IMG/VR virus record: IMGVR_UViG_3300048574_000427
Location: 1 to 40,209 of that record
Length of the DNA: 40,209 bases
Source of the DNA: a virus
Lineage: Duplodnaviria > Caudoviricetes
Reading direction: 5' to 3' (one strand)
Shown piece by piece: positions 27,008 to 36,206 of the stretch; the stretch's first letter is position 1, and every line of letters begins with the position of its first letter. The notes below the pieces were generated by a model. That model saw nothing but the letters and a program-made list of their open reading frames with translations, ran no database searches and had not been told where the DNA came from. Both the position numbers and the translations under genes were made by a program.

Positions 27008-27781
27008 ATGACCGCGCTCACCGCCGATCGCAACACGCCCCGCCTTGAAGGCGAGATGAAGTCTGCCCCGCTCGCCGCCGTGAAGGTGTTCGCGGGCGCC
27101 CTGCTGATGCGCAACGCCGCCGGCTACGCCACCAAGGGCGCGACCGTCCTCGGGCTGCGCGGCATCGGCGTCGCCTGGGAGCAGGTCGATAATTCCGGCG
27201 GCAGCGCCGGCGACGTCAGTGTCAGGTATCGCGAGGGTATGTTCCGGTTTGTCAACTCGGCCGACGCCGACGCGATCGCCGAGACCGACGCCGGCAAGCT
27301 CTGCTACGCGGTCGACGACCAGACCGTCGCCAAGACCCACGGCTCCAACACCCGTTCGGTCGCCGGCATCATCCTCGGCGTCGACAGCCTCGGCGTACAT
27401 GTGCTGGTGTCCGAGGTGGCGCTCGTCGCCTATCTGCAGACACGCCGCGTCTTCGTGCCGGTCCGGGTCGCAACCCTGGTCGGTGCCAACGTGTACCGCC
27501 AGCTCTCCATCCATGCGGGCCGGATCGTCAAAATCTGGTCAGTGACCGAGGGCGTGCTGACGACCGGCGACGCGACCCTGACCGCCAAGATCAACGGTGT
27601 TGCCGTCACCGACGGCGTCATCACCATCACGCAAGCCGGCTCCGCCGCCGGCGACAAGGACTCGGCCACGCCGAGCGCCGCCAATGTGGTCGCGGTCGGC
27701 GACGACCTCTCGCTCACGGTCGGTGGCACCAACGCCACCGCGACGGTCGCCAACGTCCTCTTCGAGATCGAGCGCGACTGA
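27008..27781 (+). CDS. Head decoration/cement-like protein with extra C-terminal beta domain
   Basis: MTALTADRNTP...CYAVDDQTVAKTHGSNTRSVAG N-terminal domain typical of the gene between protease and capsid, plus ~115 Gly/Thr/Ala/Val-rich residues. Confidence 0.75.
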   Translation: MTALTADRNTPRLEGEMKSAPLAAVKVFAGALLMRNAAGYATKGATVLGLRGIGVAWEQVDNSGGSAGDVSVRYREGMFRFVNSADADAIAETDAGKLCYAVDDQTVAKTHGSNTRSVAGIILGVDSLGVHVLVSEVALVAYLQTRRVFVPVRVATLVGANVYRQLSIHAGRIVKIWSVTEGVLTTGDATLTAKINGVAVTDGVITITQAGSAAGDKDSATPSAANVVAVGDDLSLTVGGTNATATVANVLFEIERD

Positions 27782-27827
27782 CGGGCGATCAGAGACAGCC
27801 AAGACACAATCGTAACCGGAGCACTCC

Positions 27828-28850
27828 ATGTCCAAGTTCTACAAGTGGGCCAATTTCCACAAGTGGGTTTTGCCGATCGGCCTGATCGTCTGCCTCGGCG
27901 TCCTGGCCTATGCGACCGCGCCGGCCTCTTCGCACGAGGTCGGCGGCTTCACCCTCGCCATGCTGGTCAACGCCGCCAATCTCGACGGCCTGCGCGCTGG
28001 CTTCAAGACCTCGTTCCAGACGGGGCTCGGCATGGCGCCTTCGCAGTATCAGCGCGTCGCCACCGTGGTGCCGTCGTCGACGAAGGAGCAGAAGTACGGC
28101 TGGCTCGGCAAGATCCCGCGGGTGCGCGAATGGATCGGCGCCCGCGTCATCCACAATCTCGAACAGCACGACTACGCCATCAAGGAAAAGCCCCTCGAAC
28201 TGACCGTCGGCGTCGACAAGGACGATATCGAGACCGACAATCTCGGCATCTACACGCCGCTGTTCCAGATGATGGGCCAGTCGACCGGCTCCGAGTGGGA
28301 GTCGATGGTGTGGGCTTTGATCAAGGCCGGCTGGACGTTGAAGTGCTACGACGGCCAGTATTACTTCGACACCGATCATCCGGTGCTCGATGCGGCGGGT
28401 GCGCCTCAGTCCATCGCCAATACCGATGGCGGTGCCGGAGAGCCCTGGTTCCTGCTCTGCACCAAGATGCCGCTCAAGCCGTTCATCCTGCAGAAGCGCA
28501 AGGACTTCCAGTTCGTCGCCAAGGACGACCCCCGCGACGATCGCGTGTTCATGAACAAAGAGTTCATTTACGGCGCGGACGCGCGCGGCAATGTGGGTTT
28601 CGGCTTCTGGCAGATGGCCTGGGGTTCAAAGCAGACGCTCGACGCCACCCACTACAAGGCGGCGCGCGCCGCGCTCACCGGCATGAAGGGCGACTACGGC
28701 CTGCCGCTCGGCCTGCAGCCCGACCTCCTGGTGGTCGGCTCGACCAACGAGAGCGCCGGCCGCAAGCTCCTGAATTCCGAGTACGGCGCCGGCGGCGAGA
28801 CCAACGAGTGGAAGGGCACCGCCGAGCTGCTCGTCTGCCCGTGGCTCTGA
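27828..28850 (+). CDS. Mu gpT-like major capsid protein with 44-aa hydrophobic leader
   Basis: YGWLGKIPRVREWIGAR; CYDGQYYFDTDHPV; YGADARGNVGFGFWQMAWGS; NEWKGTAELLVCPWL. GGAG RBS at the upstream ATG; canonical homology starts at Met45 (27960). Confidence 0.93.
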   Translation: MSKFYKWANFHKWVLPIGLIVCLGVLAYATAPASSHEVGGFTLAMLVNAANLDGLRAGFKTSFQTGLGMAPSQYQRVATVVPSSTKEQKYGWLGKIPRVREWIGARVIHNLEQHDYAIKEKPLELTVGVDKDDIETDNLGIYTPLFQMMGQSTGSEWESMVWALIKAGWTLKCYDGQYYFDTDHPVLDAAGAPQSIANTDGGAGEPWFLLCTKMPLKPFILQKRKDFQFVAKDDPRDDRVFMNKEFIYGADARGNVGFGFWQMAWGSKQTLDATHYKAARAALTGMKGDYGLPLGLQPDLLVVGSTNESAGRKLLNSEYGAGGETNEWKGTAELLVCPWL

Positions 28851-28858
28851 GGTGAGCC

Positions 28859-29455
28859 ATGGCCAGCGAGGCAAAGCAGAAGAATTCAGCGCCGCGCAAA
28901 TCCGCGAAAGCGGAAGCGGCTTCACGGGCGGAAGGGCCAAGCCCGACCGCCGGGGCCGGCGCTCTCCAGGCGCCGGTCACCGATCAGCCCGCCGGCGAAG
29001 AGCCGGGGGCAGTCGACCGTGTTTTCGAGGCCGGGACGGTGAATGGCACAGCCAAGACGCTGCTGCGCTCAGCGTCGATCGGCGAGCTCCCGGTCGGCGA
29101 GCTCCAGCTTCAACCCGCCGGCGACGCTGCGCCGGCGGCTGACAATACCCGCGAGCGCAGCACGGAAGCCGAAGGGGCGGCGGAATCTGCCGCCGCCCCC
29201 AAGGCCCCGGACGCGGGCGAGAAGGGGCGCTTCGTCATCCTGTCGCCACCGGTGCCCGCCGACGTTCCATCGCTTCTGCTCGCGGGTGCGACCTACATCG
29301 TCAAGGCGAAGCCGGAGCGCGGACTGCGGCGCGCCGGCCGGGCCTTCACCCGGGAAGAGACGCTGATCCCGTATGCCGATCTCTCGGCCGGGCATCGCGC
29401 CGCCATTGAGGGCGAGCCCGACCTGGTCGTGACCATCCGGCTGCCGCTCTCGTAA
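28859..29455 (+). CDS. FluMu gp35/HI1506-like protein
   Basis: Low-complexity N-terminus then GLRRAGRAFTREETLIPYADLSAGHRAAIEGEPDLVV; follows the capsid gene. Confidence 0.75.
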   Translation: MASEAKQKNSAPRKSAKAEAASRAEGPSPTAGAGALQAPVTDQPAGEEPGAVDRVFEAGTVNGTAKTLLRSASIGELPVGELQLQPAGDAAPAADNTRERSTEAEGAAESAAAPKAPDAGEKGRFVILSPPVPADVPSLLLAGATYIVKAKPERGLRRAGRAFTREETLIPYADLSAGHRAAIEGEPDLVVTIRLPLS

Positions 29456-29466
29456 CGCCCCGTTTC

Positions 29467-29553
29467 CGCGGGGTGGCGCAGTCAGGTCAGCGCGTCAGGC
29501 ACGTCCTCTTGGAAGGCCTGGAGGCCGCCGGTTCAAATCCGGCCTCCGCACCA
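29467..29553 (+). ncRNA. tRNA-like RNA (initiator tRNA-Met-like body) with expanded anticodon arm
   Basis: Acceptor CGCGGGG/CTCCGCA, D arm GCGC/GCGC, anticodon stem TCAGG/CCTGG enclosing 17 nt, variable loop AGGCC, T arm GCCGG-TTCAAAT-CCGGC, encoded CCA. Confidence 0.8.
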
Positions 29554-29690
29554 GAATTCCGGTCGCCGGCTCAACCCGGCAGCGGCGATCGGATCAGAGG
29601 CCGGTCCGCAAGACCGCCGGCCGCACGTGACCCCGGCGCGCGCAAGGAGCGGCGCGCGCCGGGTGGTCCTTCGAAGAGGTGGAGCCGTCC

Positions 29691-29885
29691 ATGCCGATGA
29701 CCGATGACGAGCTGGCGAAGTTCCTGGGCATTGCCGGCCACCCTAAGGCCCTGTTCGTCATTGCCGAACTGACGCCCGAAAAGCGCGCGCTCTACGACCG
29801 CATGGCCGAGATCGAGGTTGCCCGCAAGGCGCGCGGTAAACACCTGCCTGACCGGGCGACCAAACGACGAGGGTCCGGGCGATGA
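29691..29885 (+). CDS. Hypothetical protein (64 aa)
   Basis: GGAG RBS; MPMTDDELAKFLGIAG...LTPEKRALYDRMAEIE. Confidence 0.7.
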   Translation: MPMTDDELAKFLGIAGHPKALFVIAELTPEKRALYDRMAEIEVARKARGKHLPDRATKRRGSGR

Positions 29886-30016
29886 TCAGGTTCTTTCCGA
29901 GCGTGATGATCGTCCTCTCTGTTGGAGCCGCCGCCGTCTACGCGTGGGACACAGACTGGCGGCGCGCCATCTACTGGACCGCGGCAGCCGTGCTCACGGC
30001 ATCGGTCACATTCTGA
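29882..30016 (+). CDS. 44-aa two-TM membrane protein (not in ORF track)
   Basis: MIRFFPSVMIVLSVGAAAVYAWDTDWRRAIYWTAAAVLTASVTF; ATGA overlap with the previous gene. Confidence 0.7.
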   Translation: MIRFFPSVMIVLSVGAAAVYAWDTDWRRAIYWTAAAVLTASVTF

Positions 30017-30038
30017 GAGGCAACAAGGATCTGATCCC

Positions 30039-30335
30039 ATGGACGAAAATCTCAGGATCGACGACGCTGCCTATCAAAATGGGCGCGACATCAGCGCCAC
30101 CGGCGGCACGCTGCGCACACTCATCGAGCAAGTCGTGATTGCGAACGACGAGGATATGGCTGTCAGCCTGGCGCTCGGCTTCTTCGATGGTTTGATTGCC
30201 GAGCTTCGGCGTCCGCTGGCGGTCGTGAACATCGACGGTCTGTCGCGTTCTGATCCGCCGCGCCCGAGCGTGCAGCCGGTGACCACGCCTTACAATCCGA
30301 CGGCGCCTGGTCGACCGCCGCGGCCGACGCGATAG
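30039..30335 (+). CDS. Hypothetical protein (98 aa)
   Basis: AAGGA RBS; MDENLRIDDAAYQNG...; Pro-rich tail. Confidence 0.6.
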   Translation: MDENLRIDDAAYQNGRDISATGGTLRTLIEQVVIANDEDMAVSLALGFFDGLIAELRRPLAVVNIDGLSRSDPPRPSVQPVTTPYNPTAPGRPPRPTR

Positions 30336-30346
30336 CGAGGGCCGAG

Positions 30347-30775
30347 ATGACCTACGCCACCCAACAGCAGCTCGTCGATCGCTACGGCGAGGACATGCTG
30401 CGCAAGATCACCGATCGGGCCAAGCCACCGGCCGGCGCGATCGACGCCGCCGTGGTCGCCCGCGCGCTCGCCGATACCGATGCCGTGATCGACGGCTACC
30501 TGCTCGGCCGCTACCAGCTGCCGCTCGCCACCACGCCGGCGCTGCTCGCCGAACTCGCCTCGACGATCGCGATCTACAAGCTGCACGGCTCGACCGCGGC
30601 CGAGAAGATCGCCGACGACTACAACGCGGCTTTGCGCACGCTGCGCGAGATCGGCCAGGGCATCGTGCGCCTTGGCGTCGCCGGCATCGAGCCGGCGGCG
30701 AGCGGCACCGAGGGCGTGCGCGTCATCGACCGGGAGCGCGACCTCACCCCCGACAATCTGAAAGGCTTCATCTGA
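30347..30775 (+). CDS. Head-tail adaptor (DUF1320, Mu gp36-like)
   Basis: MTYATQQQLVDRYGE...IDGYLLGRYQLPL...IAIYKLH. Confidence 0.9.
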   Translation: MTYATQQQLVDRYGEDMLRKITDRAKPPAGAIDAAVVARALADTDAVIDGYLLGRYQLPLATTPALLAELASTIAIYKLHGSTAAEKIADDYNAALRTLREIGQGIVRLGVAGIEPAASGTEGVRVIDRERDLTPDNLKGFI

Positions 30776-31347
30776 TGGCGGCCGACGGCGTCCGCATCGA
30801 GCTCAAGAGCGAGGACATCGCGCAAGGCGTGTTCGCGCGCGCCGCCGATCGCGCCGTCAACGCCCAGCCCATGTGGGAGGACATCGGCGCCTCTCTCGTC
30901 ACCTCGACCCAGCACCGCTTCGAACGTGGCGTCAGGCCCGACGGATCGCCCTGGCCGCCGTCCATGCGGGCGCTCGCCGAAGGTGGCAAGACGCTGGTCG
31001 AGAGTACCCGCCTGATGCTGTCGCTGACCTCCGAGGCGACAGGCGTCGGCGTCATGGTCGGCACCAACGTCCTCTATGCCGCCGCGCACCAGTTCGGCGC
31101 CGACATCCAGCAGGGCGCCCGCACCCAGACCATCCGGTTCAAGCGCCACAAACGGTCCGGGAAACTTCTGAAGGGTTTCCGCCGCGCCAAGGATGCGACC
31201 GAGGAGCGCCAGGTCGATGTCGGCGCCCACACGATCCACCTGCCGGCGCGGCCGTTCCTCGGCCTGGACGATGACGACCAGGCCGAGATCGCCCGCATCG
31301 TCGAGGACTGGCTGACCGGACCGGGAGGTCTCGATGCTCGTCAATGA
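30775..31347 (+). CDS. Virion morphogenesis protein (Mu gpG / tail completion)
   Basis: RFERGVRPDGSPWPP; VGTNVLYAAAHQFG; LPARPFLGL. Confidence 0.92.
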   Translation: MAADGVRIELKSEDIAQGVFARAADRAVNAQPMWEDIGASLVTSTQHRFERGVRPDGSPWPPSMRALAEGGKTLVESTRLMLSLTSEATGVGVMVGTNVLYAAAHQFGADIQQGARTQTIRFKRHKRSGKLLKGFRRAKDATEERQVDVGAHTIHLPARPFLGLDDDDQAEIARIVEDWLTGPGGLDARQ

Positions 31348-31771
31348 CGTCATCGCGAGGCTCGACGATCGCGTCGCCGACCTCAAGGGTCGGATCGAAG
31401 GCGCGGCCGAACTCTCGGCGCTGATCCGCGACGGGGCCCTGCCGCCGGTCCTGCCGGCCGCCTTCGTGGTGCCACTGGGATTGCGGCCCGGACAGGTCGA
31501 CGCCGCCGCCGGCCTGTTCCGCCAGGACGTCGACGAGGTCGTCGGCGTCGTTCTGATCACAGATGCGCCCGGCGACGTCACCGGCGCCGGCGCCCTGCCG
31601 ACCATCGGCGAGCTGATCAAGGACACGATCGAAGCCGTGTGCGGCTTCGCACCCGGCGACGAGGTCGGCGTATTCCGCCTCTCCCGCGGCGCGCTCGTGA
31701 GCCTCAACGCCGGCACGGTCATCTACCAGCTCGATTTTGCCATCGCGGATCAACTGAGGATCGCAGGATGA
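31334..31771 (+). CDS. Tail terminator-like protein
   Basis: PAAFVVPL...YQLDF motif and position between gpG and tail tube. Confidence 0.75.
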   Translation: MLVNDVIARLDDRVADLKGRIEGAAELSALIRDGALPPVLPAAFVVPLGLRPGQVDAAAGLFRQDVDEVVGVVLITDAPGDVTGAGALPTIGELIKDTIEAVCGFAPGDEVGVFRLSRGALVSLNAGTVIYQLDFAIADQLRIAG

Positions 31772-31998
31772 GCCAGCAGCCAAGCCGAGGCGGCTCCTAC
31801 GTGCAGGACAAGGACGGGGCGCTCAAGCGCGTCGCGTTCACGGCGTCCGACGCCGGGCTGTCGATCGCCTCCGACGCCGGACTGTCGATCGCCGAGGCAA
31901 ACCGCGTCCGCGCGGTCGTCGGCATCGCTCCGCAAGCCGAGCCGGTCGCGAAGACCCAATCCGTTGCGCCCGCGAAGGGTCGCAAGTCGAAGGAGTGA
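31768..31998 (+). CDS. Small protein preceding the tail tube
   Basis: RGGSYVQDKDGALKRV motif; ATGA coupling; contains an 8-aa duplication. Confidence 0.7.
   Translation: MSQQPSRGGSYVQDKDGALKRVAFTASDAGLSIASDAGLSIAEANRVRAVVGIAPQAEPVAKTQSVAPAKGRKSKE
31846..31893 (+). repeat. 24-bp tandem duplication (one mismatch)
   Basis: TCCGACGCCGGGCTGTCGATCGCC / TCCGACGCCGGACTGTCGATCGCC, encoding SDAGLSIA twice. Confidence 0.9.
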
Positions 31999-32003
31999 CA
32001 CCG

Positions 32004-32945
32004 ATGCCGGAGCCGATCCGTTATCGTCTGATGGTCTTGCTCGCCAAGATCGAGACCGAGTACGCCACCGATCCGACGCCGACCGGCGCCGCCAACGGCA
32101 TCCTGGCCAAGAACGTCGAGATCTCGCCCATGGAGGGCGAGGACGTCTCGCGCGAGCTGATCCAGGCCTTTCTCGGCGCCCAGGCGACGGTCCCGACCGG
32201 GTTGCGCATGGTGCTGTCATTCGACACCGAGCTGGCCGGTTCGGGCGCCGCCGGCACGGCGCCCAAATGGGGTCCGCTCGCCCGCGGCGCCGGCATGGCC
32301 GAGACGATCGTCGCCGACACCTCCGTGGCCTACACGCCGGTCAGCGAGGAGATGGAGAGCCTGACCCTGTGGTTCTGGATCGGCTCGACCAAGCACGTCC
32401 TCACCGGCGCCCGGGGCGGCGGCGAGGTGACGGTGAACGCCCAAGGCATTCCGTTCATCCGCTGGACGTTCACCGGCCTGTGGAACGCGCCCGGCGAGGC
32501 GACGCGCGCGACGCCGACACTGACCGGCTTCCAGAAGCCGCTGGTGGCTTCGAAGACCAACACGCCGACCTTCACGGTCAACAGCGTTCCCCTGGTGCTG
32601 CGCAGCTATTCGCTCAAGTTCGGCAACCAGGTGGAGCCGCGCCTCCTAATCGGCCGCGAGTCGGTCGAGATCGTCGACCGCGCCGAGGCCATCGACGTGG
32701 TGGTCGAGGCGGTGCCGCTGACCACGCTCGACCCGTTCACGCTCGCCAACGCGCAGACGCTCGTTCCGGTCGCGCTCGTGCACGGCACCGTGGCTGGCAA
32801 CATCATCTCGCTCACGGCGGCGACCTGCCAAGTCAAGCGGCCGACCGGCTACCAGAACAACCAGGGCACGCTGGAATGGCCGCTCGCCCTGGCGCCGCTA
32901 CCGACTTCGACCGGCAACGACCAGTACGCCATCACCCTGACCTGA
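32004..32945 (+). CDS. Major tail tube protein
   Basis: LLAKIETEYATDPTPTG; ELAGSGAAGTAPKWG; AGGAG RBS 8 nt before the ATG; precedes the chaperone. Confidence 0.88.
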   Translation: MPEPIRYRLMVLLAKIETEYATDPTPTGAANGILAKNVEISPMEGEDVSRELIQAFLGAQATVPTGLRMVLSFDTELAGSGAAGTAPKWGPLARGAGMAETIVADTSVAYTPVSEEMESLTLWFWIGSTKHVLTGARGGGEVTVNAQGIPFIRWTFTGLWNAPGEATRATPTLTGFQKPLVASKTNTPTFTVNSVPLVLRSYSLKFGNQVEPRLLIGRESVEIVDRAEAIDVVVEAVPLTTLDPFTLANAQTLVPVALVHGTVAGNIISLTAATCQVKRPTGYQNNQGTLEWPLALAPLPTSTGNDQYAITLT

Positions 32946-32996
32946 CCCGGCCGGGATCGGGTTTTCAAACGCGCTTCAACGAGAGGTCTGCAAACC

Positions 32997-33326
32997 ATGT
33001 TCACGATCGTCGACAAGCCCACCTTCCGTCACGAGATCAAAATCCACGTGCCGGTCGACGGCGGCTTCAAGGATGAGACCGTCCAGGTGACCTATCGGGT
33101 CCTGCCTGTCGAGGAAGCCGAAAAGCACGATCTCTCGACGCCGGCGGGCACGAAGGAGTTTCTCCAGGCGGCGCTGGTCAAGATCGACGACATCGTCGAC
33201 GGCGCCAAGCAGCCGGTGCCGTACTCAGATCAGCTGCGCGATCTCATGCTGTCGTTCTCCTATGTGCGCGTCGCGCTCGCGGGCGGCTACTTCACCGCCG
33301 TGGCCGGGGCGCGCGCGGGAAACTGA
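32997..33326 (+). CDS. Tail assembly chaperone (G-like)
   Basis: Between tube and tape measure genes; ends GCG GGA AAC TGA. Confidence 0.85.
   Translation: MFTIVDKPTFRHEIKIHVPVDGGFKDETVQVTYRVLPVEEAEKHDLSTPAGTKEFLQAALVKIDDIVDGAKQPVPYSDQLRDLMLSFSYVRVALAGGYFTAVAGARAGN
33317..33323 (+). other. Programmed -1 ribosomal frameshift site
   Basis: G GGA AAC (X XXY YYZ) immediately before the stop; the -1 frame is open into the 33428-33712 ORF. Confidence 0.85.
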
Positions 33327-33712
33327 GATGGGCCGCCCGCCGCTGGGCGACCGGCGACGGGGCGGCCGATAAGGCGAGCGAGAAGGCGACCGAGGATGCG
33401 CGCGCATTCGGCTTCGACGAACAGTCCATGGCCGAGCTGGCTGCGGCCCTCGCCGAAGTCCACGACGACGAATTCTCCGGCTTGTGGCGGGAAAACGTCG
33501 CCGTGTTCGACGCCTTCGTCGCCGTCGGCACCCAATGGCGCACGGCGCCGATCGGCGGCGGTATGGCGCCGGTCGGCATCGTCTATGTGGGCCTCGATTA
33601 CGCGGCGGTCCGCGCCGGCCTCGACGCCGCCGGCATCGTGGTCACCCCGGAGCTGTGGGCCGGCCTGCGCGTCATGGAAGATGCCGCGCGGGCGGCGTTG
33701 AACGGACGGTGA
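33323..33712 (+). CDS. Frameshift extension of the tail chaperone (GT-like, DUF1799-like)
   Basis: -1 frame LRWAARRWATG...LWRENVAVFDAFVAVGTQWR..YVGLDYAAV..LRVMEDAARAALN. Confidence 0.82.
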   Translation: MRWAARRWATGDGAADKASEKATEDARAFGFDEQSMAELAAALAEVHDDEFSGLWRENVAVFDAFVAVGTQWRTAPIGGGMAPVGIVYVGLDYAAVRAGLDAAGIVVTPELWAGLRVMEDAARAALNGR

Positions 33713-33719
33713 GCTGATC

Positions 33720-36206
33720 ATGTCCATGCGCCTCGCCCTCGTCATCGACGGCAATGCCGCCGGCGCCAAACAGGCGCTCGACGAGACGGCGCGTGGGCTC
33801 GCCAATATCCGCCAGGTGGCGGCCGGCGCTGCGGCCGCGACGGGACCCGCGCTGTCGGGGGTCGCCCCGGCGATCGACAAGGCGTCCGGTGCCCTCAAGG
33901 GGTTCGAGGCCGAGCTCGCCAAGGCGACCGGCGCCATCAACGACATGAGCGCGGTCGGCCAGCGCGGCCTCGACCAGATTCGCGCGCGCTTCGATCCGCT
34001 CTTCGCGTCCGGCCAACGCTACAGGCAGGAACTCGCCGACATCCGCGAAGCGATGGCCTCCCAGGCGCTCACCCAGGCGCAAGGGGCCGCCGCCATCGCG
34101 CGCACCAAGGAAGCCTTCACGTCGCAGGTGGCGGCGATCAATGGCGCCAAGACGGCAGCCAAGGGCATGTCGTTCGAGGCGAAGAACCTCAGCTATCAGC
34201 TGGTCGATATCAGCCAGGGCGTGCTGATGGGCCAGTCCGCCTTCATGATCCTGGCCCAGCAGGGCGGCCAGGTCGCGCAGGTGATCGGCACGGCTCAGGG
34301 CGGCCTGGGCGGCCTGATGAAGGAGCTCAAGACATCCGTCCTCGGGCTCGTCACGCCGATGCGGCTCTTGGGGCTCGGTGCAGTAGCCGCCGGCGCCGCC
34401 GGCTACGCGCTCTACAGTAGTTGGAAGTCGTCGGCGCTGGCGCTCGACGATACGGCGCGTGCGGCCGGAACGACCATCCGCGTCATCCGGGAGCTGCAGT
34501 CCGTCGCCGCCGGCAAGGGCATCAAGGCGGACCAGTTCCTGCCCGACATGGAGCAGTTCGGCCAGCAGGTCTATCAGGCCCGCAGTGGCATGGGCGGACT
34601 CGCGGAGGTCCTGCGCGCCAACGGCGTGCCGGCCGCCAAGGATTTCGAAGACGCCTTCAACAAGGTTGCCGACCTGATCGCGCGTGCCAAGGACGATCAG
34701 ACTCGGCTGTCGCTGCTCCAGCAGGTGGGGCTGCCGGCGACGATGCAATACGTGCGCCTGATGCAGCAGGGTGCGGACGGCATCAAGACGGCGCGTGAGG
34801 AAGCAGTCAAATTCAACGACGTCGCCGAAGAGAAGATGATCGCCTCGGTGCGCCGCTTCGACGAGGCCTGGGACAGGTTCTGGGACAAGTTCGGCAAAGC
34901 CGTCAAGAGTGCGACGGTTTCCGCCGGCGGTTGGCTGGACGACCTCAGCGACAAAGTGAACCGCCTTGTCATGCGGTTCGACGTCGCGACCGGCGGCTCG
35001 GGGCGGTCTGCCCTCAGTCTCATCTACGGCGCCGCAGTCCAGCAAGGAGAGGCATCTCGGCTCACCCAGGGCGATGCCCAAAAGTACTATGAAGCGACGG
35101 GTCGCGGCAAAACTCCGTTCGAAGCCAGCGAGCCTGCTCCCACCGGTAGGCTTCGAATAACGGTCAACCGCCCGACGGGCGATGTCGATCCCGCCAAACA
35201 GAAGGCCGACGCGGCTCGATACCAGCAGATGATCGGCCTGCTCGGTCAAACCGCGACCGCCACCGAGCAGGTGACGGCGTTCGAAAAGCAGCTGCAGCTC
35301 GCTTGGCTGACCACCGGCGTATCGATCCCGAAGGAGCGAACCGCGGTCATCAAGAAGATGATCGAGGAGCAGGCGCTCGGCATCACCCAGATCAAGGCCA
35401 GCGCCGATGCCCAGCGCCTGGAGGCCGACGCGATCGGCATGTCGGTCGGGCAATCGACCGCCTACCTCGCGGTCCAGAACGCGATCCTCGACGCCAAGCG
35501 GCGCGGCCAGACGCTCACCCAGGACAACATCGCGGCGATCGAGCGCGAGGCCGCCGCGCTCGGGGCCGCCGCCCAGCGCACCGACAATTTGAAGTCCAGT
35601 TACGACACCGCCAAAGGTGCCTTCACGACCTTCCGCCAGGAGATCGCCCAGGGTACCGGCGTCTGGGATGCGCTCGCCAAGGCCGGCATCAACGCCCTCG
35701 ACAAGATCGGCGCCAAGCTCGGGGATCTCGCGTTCGACCAGGCGTGGCAGATGTTCTTCGGCAGTTCGGGCGCCGCATCCGGCGGCGCCAGCGGCGGCGG
35801 CATTTTCGCGTCGATCGGAAAGCTGCTCGGCTTCGCGCGAGGCGGCTACACCGGCGACCGCGGCCGCCAGGCCGTTTCCGGCGTGGTGCACGGACAAGAA
35901 TTCGTCGTCAATGCGCAGGCGACCGCGCGCCACCGTCCGCTCCTCGAAGCCCTCAACGACAACCGCCTGCCGGGCTACGAGGACGGCGGCTATGTGGGCC
36001 CGCCGCCGTCGAACGTGGTTGCGTTTCCGGGCACAGCCAGCGGCGGCACGGCGCCGATCCAGGTCACCTACGCGCCCGTCTACAACGTGCAGGGCGTCGG
36101 TCAAGAAATCGACGATCTGCGCACCCAGATAGCGCGCGATCGCGCCGAGGCGCCTGCCGTCATCGTCCAGACCATCAAGGAAGCTCAATCCCGGAGAATG
36201 ATCTGA
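33720..36206 (+). CDS. Tail tape measure protein
   Basis: 828 aa, Ala-rich helical; NLSYQLVDISQGVLMGQSAFMILAQQGGQV; FARGGYTG..GVVHGQEFVVNA. Confidence 0.93.
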   Translation: MSMRLALVIDGNAAGAKQALDETARGLANIRQVAAGAAAATGPALSGVAPAIDKASGALKGFEAELAKATGAINDMSAVGQRGLDQIRARFDPLFASGQRYRQELADIREAMASQALTQAQGAAAIARTKEAFTSQVAAINGAKTAAKGMSFEAKNLSYQLVDISQGVLMGQSAFMILAQQGGQVAQVIGTAQGGLGGLMKELKTSVLGLVTPMRLLGLGAVAAGAAGYALYSSWKSSALALDDTARAAGTTIRVIRELQSVAAGKGIKADQFLPDMEQFGQQVYQARSGMGGLAEVLRANGVPAAKDFEDAFNKVADLIARAKDDQTRLSLLQQVGLPATMQYVRLMQQGADGIKTAREEAVKFNDVAEEKMIASVRRFDEAWDRFWDKFGKAVKSATVSAGGWLDDLSDKVNRLVMRFDVATGGSGRSALSLIYGAAVQQGEASRLTQGDAQKYYEATGRGKTPFEASEPAPTGRLRITVNRPTGDVDPAKQKADAARYQQMIGLLGQTATATEQVTAFEKQLQLAWLTTGVSIPKERTAVIKKMIEEQALGITQIKASADAQRLEADAIGMSVGQSTAYLAVQNAILDAKRRGQTLTQDNIAAIEREAAALGAAAQRTDNLKSSYDTAKGAFTTFRQEIAQGTGVWDALAKAGINALDKIGAKLGDLAFDQAWQMFFGSSGAASGGASGGGIFASIGKLLGFARGGYTGDRGRQAVSGVVHGQEFVVNAQATARHRPLLEALNDNRLPGYEDGGYVGPPPSNVVAFPGTASGGTAPIQVTYAPVYNVQGVGQEIDDLRTQIARDRAEAPAVIVQTIKEAQSRRMI

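Follow-up and report, generated by a model that had tools for sequence, protein, structure and literature searches.

A probably maintained, non-decoding relative of initiator tRNA in the late operon of Mu-like prophages

RESULTS

A tRNA-derived element between head and tail genes

The window (the whole analysed stretch of 40,209 nucleotides) is a complete provirus record. Its prophage, distantly related to RS1, RC1 and D3112, encodes Mu-type transposase A and B, Gam, terminase, portal, protease, major capsid, gp36 and a siphovirus-type tail; relatives of the capsid gene align from the ATG at 27960. The tRNA-like element that had been placed inside the virion operon indeed stands between head and tail genes, 11 nt after the stop of a gp35-like gene and with gp36 downstream (Table 1), and its 87 bases are present as originally described. 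It was said not to be an attachment site, and this agrees with its mid-operon position and with the presence of Mu-type transposase A and B: a tRNA attachment site would be sought at a prophage end beside an integrase, and the element does not lie at such a place.

A simple scan of positions 27500-33800 found two sigma-70-like sites, neither of them near the element (an activator-dependent late promoter would be missed by it), and no terminator-like site on the plus strand. The absence of promoter-like and terminator-like sites of its own fits co-transcription of the element with the late operon, as judged from sequence. The Mu-gpT-DE motif gave no match. Pairing of the arm of the element with the downstream ribosome-binding site was considered and rejected: its 6 bp in the window are lost in two other copies (L001 and L236, by eye).

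Beyond the element and three predicted hairpins lie three small ORFs without Pfam matches, of which the first two are replaced in L001 and L236; these ORFs are possible anti-defence genes. The third has homologues in seven viral loci, in 6/7 of which it stands beside a slot tRNA.

Table 1. Features of the element and its surroundings (window coordinates unless a locus is named)
Feature	Coordinates	Strand	Basis
Major capsid gene (Mu gpT-like)	27960..28850	+	PHROG 371 major head protein, E 1.6e-116, on ORF 27828-28850
gp35-like gene	28859..29455	+	ORF; FluMu_N below cut-off, E 0.017
Leader of element	29456..29466	+	predicted pairing with 5' acceptor strand
tRNA-fMet-derived element	29467..29553	+	ARAGORN, Rfam, fold, comparison with copies
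Unpaired C1 (element position 1)	29467	+	fold/alignment
Acceptor stem, 6 bp	29468-73/29544-49	+	fold
D arm	29476-93	+	fold
Rebuilt anticodon arm: 6-bp stem, 3x2 internal loop, hairpin	29495..29521	+	fold energies, copy alignment
Decayed anticodon inside internal loop of rebuilt arm	29500-04	+	copy alignment
TCC-tctt-GGA apical hairpin of rebuilt arm	29504-13	+	fold
T arm (A-CCA closes the element further on)	29527-43	+	fold
Downstream hairpin 1, 4 nt after CCA	29558..29593	+	fold; kept in 5 copies
Downstream hairpin 2	29599..29622	+	fold, copy alignment
Downstream hairpin 3, 12 bp without U tract; invariant stem, variable loop	29632..29663	+	fold, copy alignment
Three small accessory ORFs	29691-29885, 29882-30016, 30039-30335	+	ORF list
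Mu gp36 head-tail adaptor, first neck gene past slot	30347..30775	+	PF07030, E 1.5e-36; PHROG 195
L387/L388 pair: capsid, small gene, 10-11 nt, element	L387:3487-3569, L388:725-807	-	capsid by PHROG, E 2e-23
L130 tRNA-like, 46 nt after capsid gene	L130:2500-2582
L103 group (L103 and 10 sister loci), 5 nt after probable tail tube	L103:2500-2581
L171 tRNA-like, 34 nt after tail protein that follows tail terminator	L171:2500-2589

Run on the whole window, ARAGORN made a single gene call, at 29467-29552, and left its anticodon undetermined (tRNA-???), as had been anticipated. The element scores 44.7 bits against Rfam RF00005 (gathering score 29, E 2.2e-07), with the surplus bases falling in the anticodon loop, and matches no other Rfam family; this score, together with 54-55/66 positions shared with host fMet genes outside the loop, bears out the described likeness to alphaproteobacterial initiator tRNA-Met. 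The predicted fold of the 87-mer is a cloverleaf, with TCC-tctt-GGA as its apical hairpin and with stems of 6 (acceptor) and 5 bp (T), and its T arm carries, next to mRNA, the motif GGTTCRANYCC in the form used in PMC1920247. Stability of the whole is unexceptional (z -1.35; 20/200 shuffles are as stable), and that of the rebuilt arm folded alone gives z -2.17; the case for tRNA identity rests on the tRNA signature, not on folding energy. The arm prefers its register by -11.3 against -3.3 kcal/mol. The alternative register, with CC/GG closing an 8-nt loop, was prompted by another aberrant tRNA (L080) and rejected as about 6-10 kcal/mol worse in three variants. Of the extended arm as first drawn, the internal loop and the apical hairpin hold, and the C-G pair is lost in the L001 variant.

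What changed from initiator tRNA

Comparison with the fMet genes of Astrobacterium (L242) and Rhizobium daejeonense (L228) makes clear that the 7-nt anticodon loop has been replaced by one of 17 nt and that the 3' end is one base short before CCA, both as proposed. Outside the loop, identity with these two genes is 54/66 and 55/66, and with tRNAs found at the same place in related prophages 42-53/66; C1, the TCAGG stem and the T loop are shared with the host genes. A 5-bp anticodon stem, a 7-nt loop and U33 are absent; in their place stand the 17-nt loop and an extended arm with a tetraloop. The claim that the element does not decode is supported, there being no decodable loop.

Bacterial initiator tRNA-fMet is marked by CAU in a canonical loop, by the A11-U24 pair and by a C1-A72 mismatch followed by N73-CCA. 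In the element CAT is absent from 4/5 known copies; L238 alone retains it, within the internal loop and preceded by A in place of U33. Host genes have A11-U24, whereas the element has C11-G24, which is common to most intact slot tRNAs. C1 of the C1-A72 mismatch is present, but a single A precedes CCA in 5/5 copies, against two bases in 13 intact slot tRNAs and the two host genes. Two changes are derived: on the 3' side of the anticodon 10 bases have been gained (net), and ahead of CCA one base has been lost. What remains of the old anticodon, still recognisable but decaying, is CACAT in L238, CACGT in the window, L235 and L236, and CTGAT in L001. The added bases can be aligned with the 8 nt that follow them as a tandem duplication, if four inserted bases are allowed (post hoc comparison with shuffles, p about 0.003).

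One argument of the original prediction fails. Its altered yet paired D and T stems were taken as a sign of selection on structure; GCGC/GCGC is found in 9/13 intact slot tRNA-Met genes and GCCGG/CCGGC in 2/13 (L059 and L079), and because decoding relatives in the same slot carry both stems, they could simply have been inherited from a decoding tRNA.

The gp35-gp36 slot across Mu-like prophages

From 184 loci with gpT and gp36 we obtained 135 distinct slots and, at 95%, 130 clusters. An intact tRNA is present in 21 (L008, L040, L059, L065, L069, L088, L156, L226, L245, L248, L250, L275, L282, L315, L316, L319, L329, L340, L342, L350 and L380), the extended form in three (the window, L001 and L238), another aberrant tRNA in one (L080) and none in 105; one anchor is absent from L005, L079 and L252 (intact) and from L235 and L236 (extended), which are outside this count. 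No canonical tRNA other than Met(CAT) was found in the 130 slots. At gathering level Rfam reported RF00005 only, on 20 loci, and missed L080 and L252. Among 401 genomes sampled from the family of Astrobacterium, 23 had a gp36 match, and the nine closest comprise five intact tRNA-Met, one extended and three empty slots (one perhaps incompletely covered).

In the 13 intact slot genes examined the loop is always U33-CAU-A37. Their anticodon stems are variable and unlike that of host fMet, but remain paired; we therefore regard the ancestral slot gene as decoding and under selection. Since all 21 intact slot tRNAs are Met(CAT), its ancestral job was probably decoding, not punctuation. In a gp36 tree (89 rows, slots with gp36 identity of at least 52%, with many forks unresolved), the three extended copies fall in one well-supported clade beside L042 (tRNA-less) and L316 (intact), and intact and empty slots are interleaved. 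Strong downstream hairpins accompany 10/16 slots with a tRNA and 21/50 without, giving no clear signal (66/135 slots were scorable).

The aberrant slot tRNA at L080:5631-5721 has a different body (G1-C72, 7-bp acceptor; 41/69 positions match the element), lies below the Rfam threshold and shares a CCTCTT motif in its extended arm with the window. A pattern common to its arm and the extended copies matches only those four loci, from which it was built. Elsewhere, an unannotated intact tRNA-Met(CAT) with a GCGC D stem lies between the terminase and portal genes of Erythrobacter phage ZS04 (PV416405.1; L229:2502-2578), and tRNA-likes with an 11-nt anticodon loop, left undetermined by ARAGORN, lie near terminase-like genes in L216, L219 and L220.

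Five copies and the conservation of the fold

Five prophages carry the element: the window, the L001 lineage and three in Astrobacterium formosum Astr-EGSB (Nitrobacteraceae); L081, identical to the window, was left out of the count. The A. formosum genome (G001) has four Mu-like capsid loci, on contigs C41, C47, C48 and C77, at least three of them with the element; their backbones are mosaic, and their gpT is 68-100% identical to that of the window. The search of related prophages that had been proposed as a check yielded intact stems in all five copies and no covariation within the family. Decay with broken stems, named in advance as the outcome that would count against the element, was not seen: variation affects 5/87 sites, 0/48 paired against 5/39 unpaired (p 0.016), and three of the five variable sites fall in the old anticodon. 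The apical hairpin has 1/13 sites variable (p 0.013).

How far this reflects maintenance depends on the flanks. At the adjoining end of gp35, 12/30 four-fold sites vary, against 5/87 in the element (p 3e-5), a comparison that overstates maintenance because the phages are mosaic: L238 and the window share a near-identical downstream block (0/37, 0/27 and 1/29 four-fold sites differ), so the identity of the L238 element shows nothing. Mosaic recombination thus weakens the conservation argument. The most independent copy, L082, is more telling. Its pooled four-fold sites differ at 145/656, the region of the first downstream hairpin at 8 in 43 nt and the adjacent hairpin region at 18/111, against 0/70 for the tRNA body (p 1e-4); in a conservative test, 0/48 paired sites at the adjacent synonymous rate of 3 in 40 gives p 0.024. 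In L236, 1/87 element sites differ against 5/43 (p 0.015), and in L235 0/87 differ (p is 3e-4 if downstream sites are pooled for the comparison, and 0.09 if the nearest downstream gene is used). The element block persists in L001 and L236 despite different downstream ORFs, which excludes hitch-hiking with those ORFs for both. Selection on the fold of the element is likely on this comparison.

A metagenome scan for extended fMet-like genes with a GCGC D stem returned five matches, none Mu-like or of the family of the element; a genome scan also returned five, two of them unrelated (L234, a tRNA-Ser, and L237, archaeal). When the element was compared by BLAST with GenBank phages and plasmids, no record reached 80% query coverage, and the best annotated matches are ordinary tRNA-Met genes. 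One DNA run (X1) shows three upstream haplotypes, among the matches listed none differing inside the element, which may not be independent and were left uncounted; another (X2) covers only 34 nt, outside the element.

A predicted switch in the leader

The 10-12 nt between the gp35 stop and the element are predicted to pair with the 5' acceptor strand in 5/5 extended copies (probability 0.94-1.00), whereas 13 intact slot tRNAs, L080 and the two host genes do not exceed 0.12 (in this comparison the start of L069 is one base off). In this model, which ignores tertiary contacts, the leader fold is 5-8 kcal/mol more stable than with the leader forced open. Four different leader sequences keep the pairing, and since their changes are mostly transitions opposite G this is weak support. 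The leader is thus predicted to sequester the acceptor stem and to block the cloverleaf in the precursor. A terminating ribosome covers seven bases past the stop; with these masked, acceptor pairing returns to 0.80-0.97, but to only 0.39 in L238.

Similar elements behind capsid and tail genes of other phages

A scan for long fMet-like genes covered at least 119 loci with at least 93 distinct sequences. Among the matches listed, eight lineages have an extended arm and no canonical loop (by eye), and 5/8 stand just behind capsid, post-capsid or tail-tube/tail genes; four unrelated phage lineages carry such tRNA-likes directly behind capsid or tail-tube genes (Table 1). The other three, L133, L153 and L111, have non-canonical arms but no such position behind virion genes; in L111 the D arm is extended as well. 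Canonical-arm controls (55, drawn from 65 distinct sequences in 80 loci with full flanks) stand behind such genes in 1/55 among the matches listed, and this one, L156, is itself a Mu slot (Fisher p 5e-5 for 5/8 against 1/55). The association, again among the matches listed, is 3/8 (p 0.005) by PHROG labels only, and against 14 solitary tRNA controls p is 0.011, rising to 0.12 if PHROG labels alone are counted. Annotation is lacking for many control ORFs, and Atlas was applied only to two extended cases. Between L387 and L388 there are four compensatory pairs, and the apical loop AAGGAC is conserved. Also common among the matches listed are phage tRNA-Met(CAT) genes in which an initiator-like acceptor goes together with a long variable arm or an extended D loop (for example L113, L122, L147 and L164).

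DISCUSSION

A possible processing mark in cis

The element is real and probably maintained, a derivative of tRNA-fMet that, to judge from its sequence, does not decode. We suggest, with a probability of roughly 0.4, that it acts in cis as a tRNA-shaped cut mark which splits the late message between the head and the neck/tail genes. In the raw transcript the leader would pair with the acceptor strand until a ribosome that has reached the gp35 stop masks it; the cloverleaf could then fold, whereupon RNase P may cut on its 5' side and a 3' nuclease after CCA. The missing base would leave a paired G-C followed by A-CCA, that is, an RCCA end on a 6+5 bp helix offered to RNase P. Bacterial RNase P is described as reading the 3' RCCA, by pairing, and the leader (PMC4919922), and in plant mitochondria tRNA-like t-elements as well as real tRNAs are described as setting mRNA ends (PMC1920247). 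The three downstream hairpins might then shield the new 5' end, and the outcome would be head and tail messages with separate lifetimes.

Of the two functions first proposed, a processing signal and a decoy for anticodon nucleases, the former seems to fit better, because the anticodon stem-loop that such nucleases read is the very part replaced, because published phage rescue replaces the host tRNA and needs the anticodon, and because capsid and tail-tube genes are followed by elements of this kind in several lineages. The products of these genes are needed in high copy, and a late message might well be divided where such genes end. The tRNA body and RCCA end that are kept, the nuclease target that is not and this position led us to rank the cis mark first; variation confined to unpaired sites, three of them in the old anticodon, and the same layout in L387/L388 (capsid, small gene, 10-11 nt, element) also speak for it. 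It should be noted, however, that 105/130 related slots have no tRNA, including that of L042, its closest neighbour by gp36, so that this virion can be built without the cut. The slot is accessory, and 21/50 scorable tRNA-less slots have at the site a plain hairpin with at least 10 bp. For a mere processing mark the apical hairpin is conserved beyond need, and the loop sequence is kept in L387/L388 too; the leader fold, as predicted, would moreover disfavour the cloverleaf.

Alternatives

The conserved sequence of the apical arm would also fit an element that is excised from abundant late message and binds a host tRNA-targeting toxin or defence enzyme in trans. Such an enzyme would have to read the fMet acceptor, the elbow or the CCA end, as the element offers no cleavable anticodon loop. 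Slot anticodon stems that vary, differ from host fMet in 13/13 and keep CAT are the pattern expected of counter-defence tRNAs (PMC10264068, PMC11464382), and an accessory locus with variable small ORFs would suit a decoy. The host of three copies encodes 23 PIN proteins over the cut-off and one AAA_13 protein, a content that does not discriminate, PIN being present in 10/14 control genomes. Against it, anticodon nucleases read the replaced stem-loop, as is described for AriB (PMC11464382), and the rescue reported for phage tRNAs works by replacement of the host tRNA, anticodon changes abolishing it (PMC11555353, PMC11464382). The leader is also predicted to hinder release of a folded tRNA, and lineages in probably different hosts converge on position, not on arm sequence. 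We consider a decoy less probable than not, but it is the main rival and ranks not far below the cis mark.

The resemblance of the insert to a tandem duplication of the next 8 nt allows another history, in which slippage destroyed the anticodon and a dead gene was spread by recombination among close prophages too recently to erode. The five copies are of single origin, three of them in one genome; the L238 block and the p of 0.09 for L235 against its nearest downstream gene point the same way, as do the frequent loss of the slot tRNA and the lack of a close family member among the five metagenome matches. Changes nevertheless avoid paired sites, L082 and L236 keep the body while both flanks diverge (0.024 in the most conservative test), and compensatory pairs occur in the same design in other lineages, which makes recent decay improbable. 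Other roles, apart from all those named here, are together slightly less probable again. Least credible is an interrupted tRNA that would decode after splicing of a short intron. In its intron mode ARAGORN calls L001 a tRNA-Ser(GGA) interrupted by 8 nt, and tool-predicted tRNA introns are reported in Lak phages (10.1101/356790). The 8-nt reading, however, leaves a 6-bp anticodon stem, a 6-bp acceptor and no serine-type variable arm, and 0/8 of the 10-nt deletions from the loop of the window give a 7-nt loop with U33. We know of no bacterial route for such an intron.

A wider reading and known systems

A broader proposal, which we hold unlikely as a whole, is that a tRNA gene behind a capsid or tail-tube gene has repeatedly, in unrelated phages, lost its decoding role and had its anticodon arm rebuilt. 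The resulting elements would form a phage class of t-elements that cut late operons with host tRNA enzymes. In the Mu-like lineage the leader hairpin would tie the cut to a ribosome reaching the upstream stop, and so sense translation, and the slot would preserve the path from intact initiator tRNA through mimic to loss. If true, tRNA-shaped punctuation, known from organelles, would tune the output of virion genes in phages. The prevailing view of phage tRNAs is that they stand in for host tRNAs which defence nucleases have cut, and pseudo-tRNAs of phages receive little attention. Here three states can be compared in a single genetic context (intact tRNA-fMet in 21/130, a non-decoding mimic in 4, none in 105), and this natural comparison bears on whether a phage tRNA can matter without decoding. 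In the open-access literature, which leaves most subscription papers outside the scope, we found neither the element nor an initiator tRNA or tRNA-Met in Mu-like or transposable phages.

The C4 RNA of phages P1 and P7 is reportedly a substrate of RNase P. It is thus a phage transcript that is not a tRNA and yet is processed by an enzyme of host tRNA maturation, and in this it resembles the processing proposed here. C4 is, however, an antisense regulator of immunity, while the only Rfam match of our element is tRNA. Non-canonical cloverleaves, some probably untranslating, have been described in bacteria and phages as allo-tRNAs and irregular tRNAs (Mukai et al., PMC5389517); allo-tRNAs are defined there by 8/4 or 9/3 acceptor/T stems, and the element, with 6/5 and its alteration in the anticodon arm, is not one of them. 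Counter-defence functions are reported for T5 tRNA-Lys against PARIS (PMC11464382) and for a T5-like tRNA-Tyr against retron-Eco7 and tRNA-Lys against PrrC170 (PMC11555353). As described in these reports such tRNAs differ from the host tRNA in the anticodon arm, a pattern that the 21 intact slot tRNA-fMet genes fit, but they still decode and replace it, and the element has no decodable loop. Coliphages are said in PMC10264068 generally to avoid encoding tRNA-fMet where VapC-LT2 targets the anticodon, which makes a slot holding fMet only a notable one.

A close parallel is with the t-elements of plant mitochondria (Forner et al. 2007, PMC1920247), where a tRNA-like fold with GGTTCRANYCC likewise stands beside coding sequence and is proposed to direct the RNase P and RNase Z cuts that set mRNA ends. 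The element differs in lying in the late operon of a bacterial phage, in its full cloverleaf, encoded CCA and rebuilt arm, and in being known here from sequence alone. It differs also in that intact orthologues exist in its own slot.
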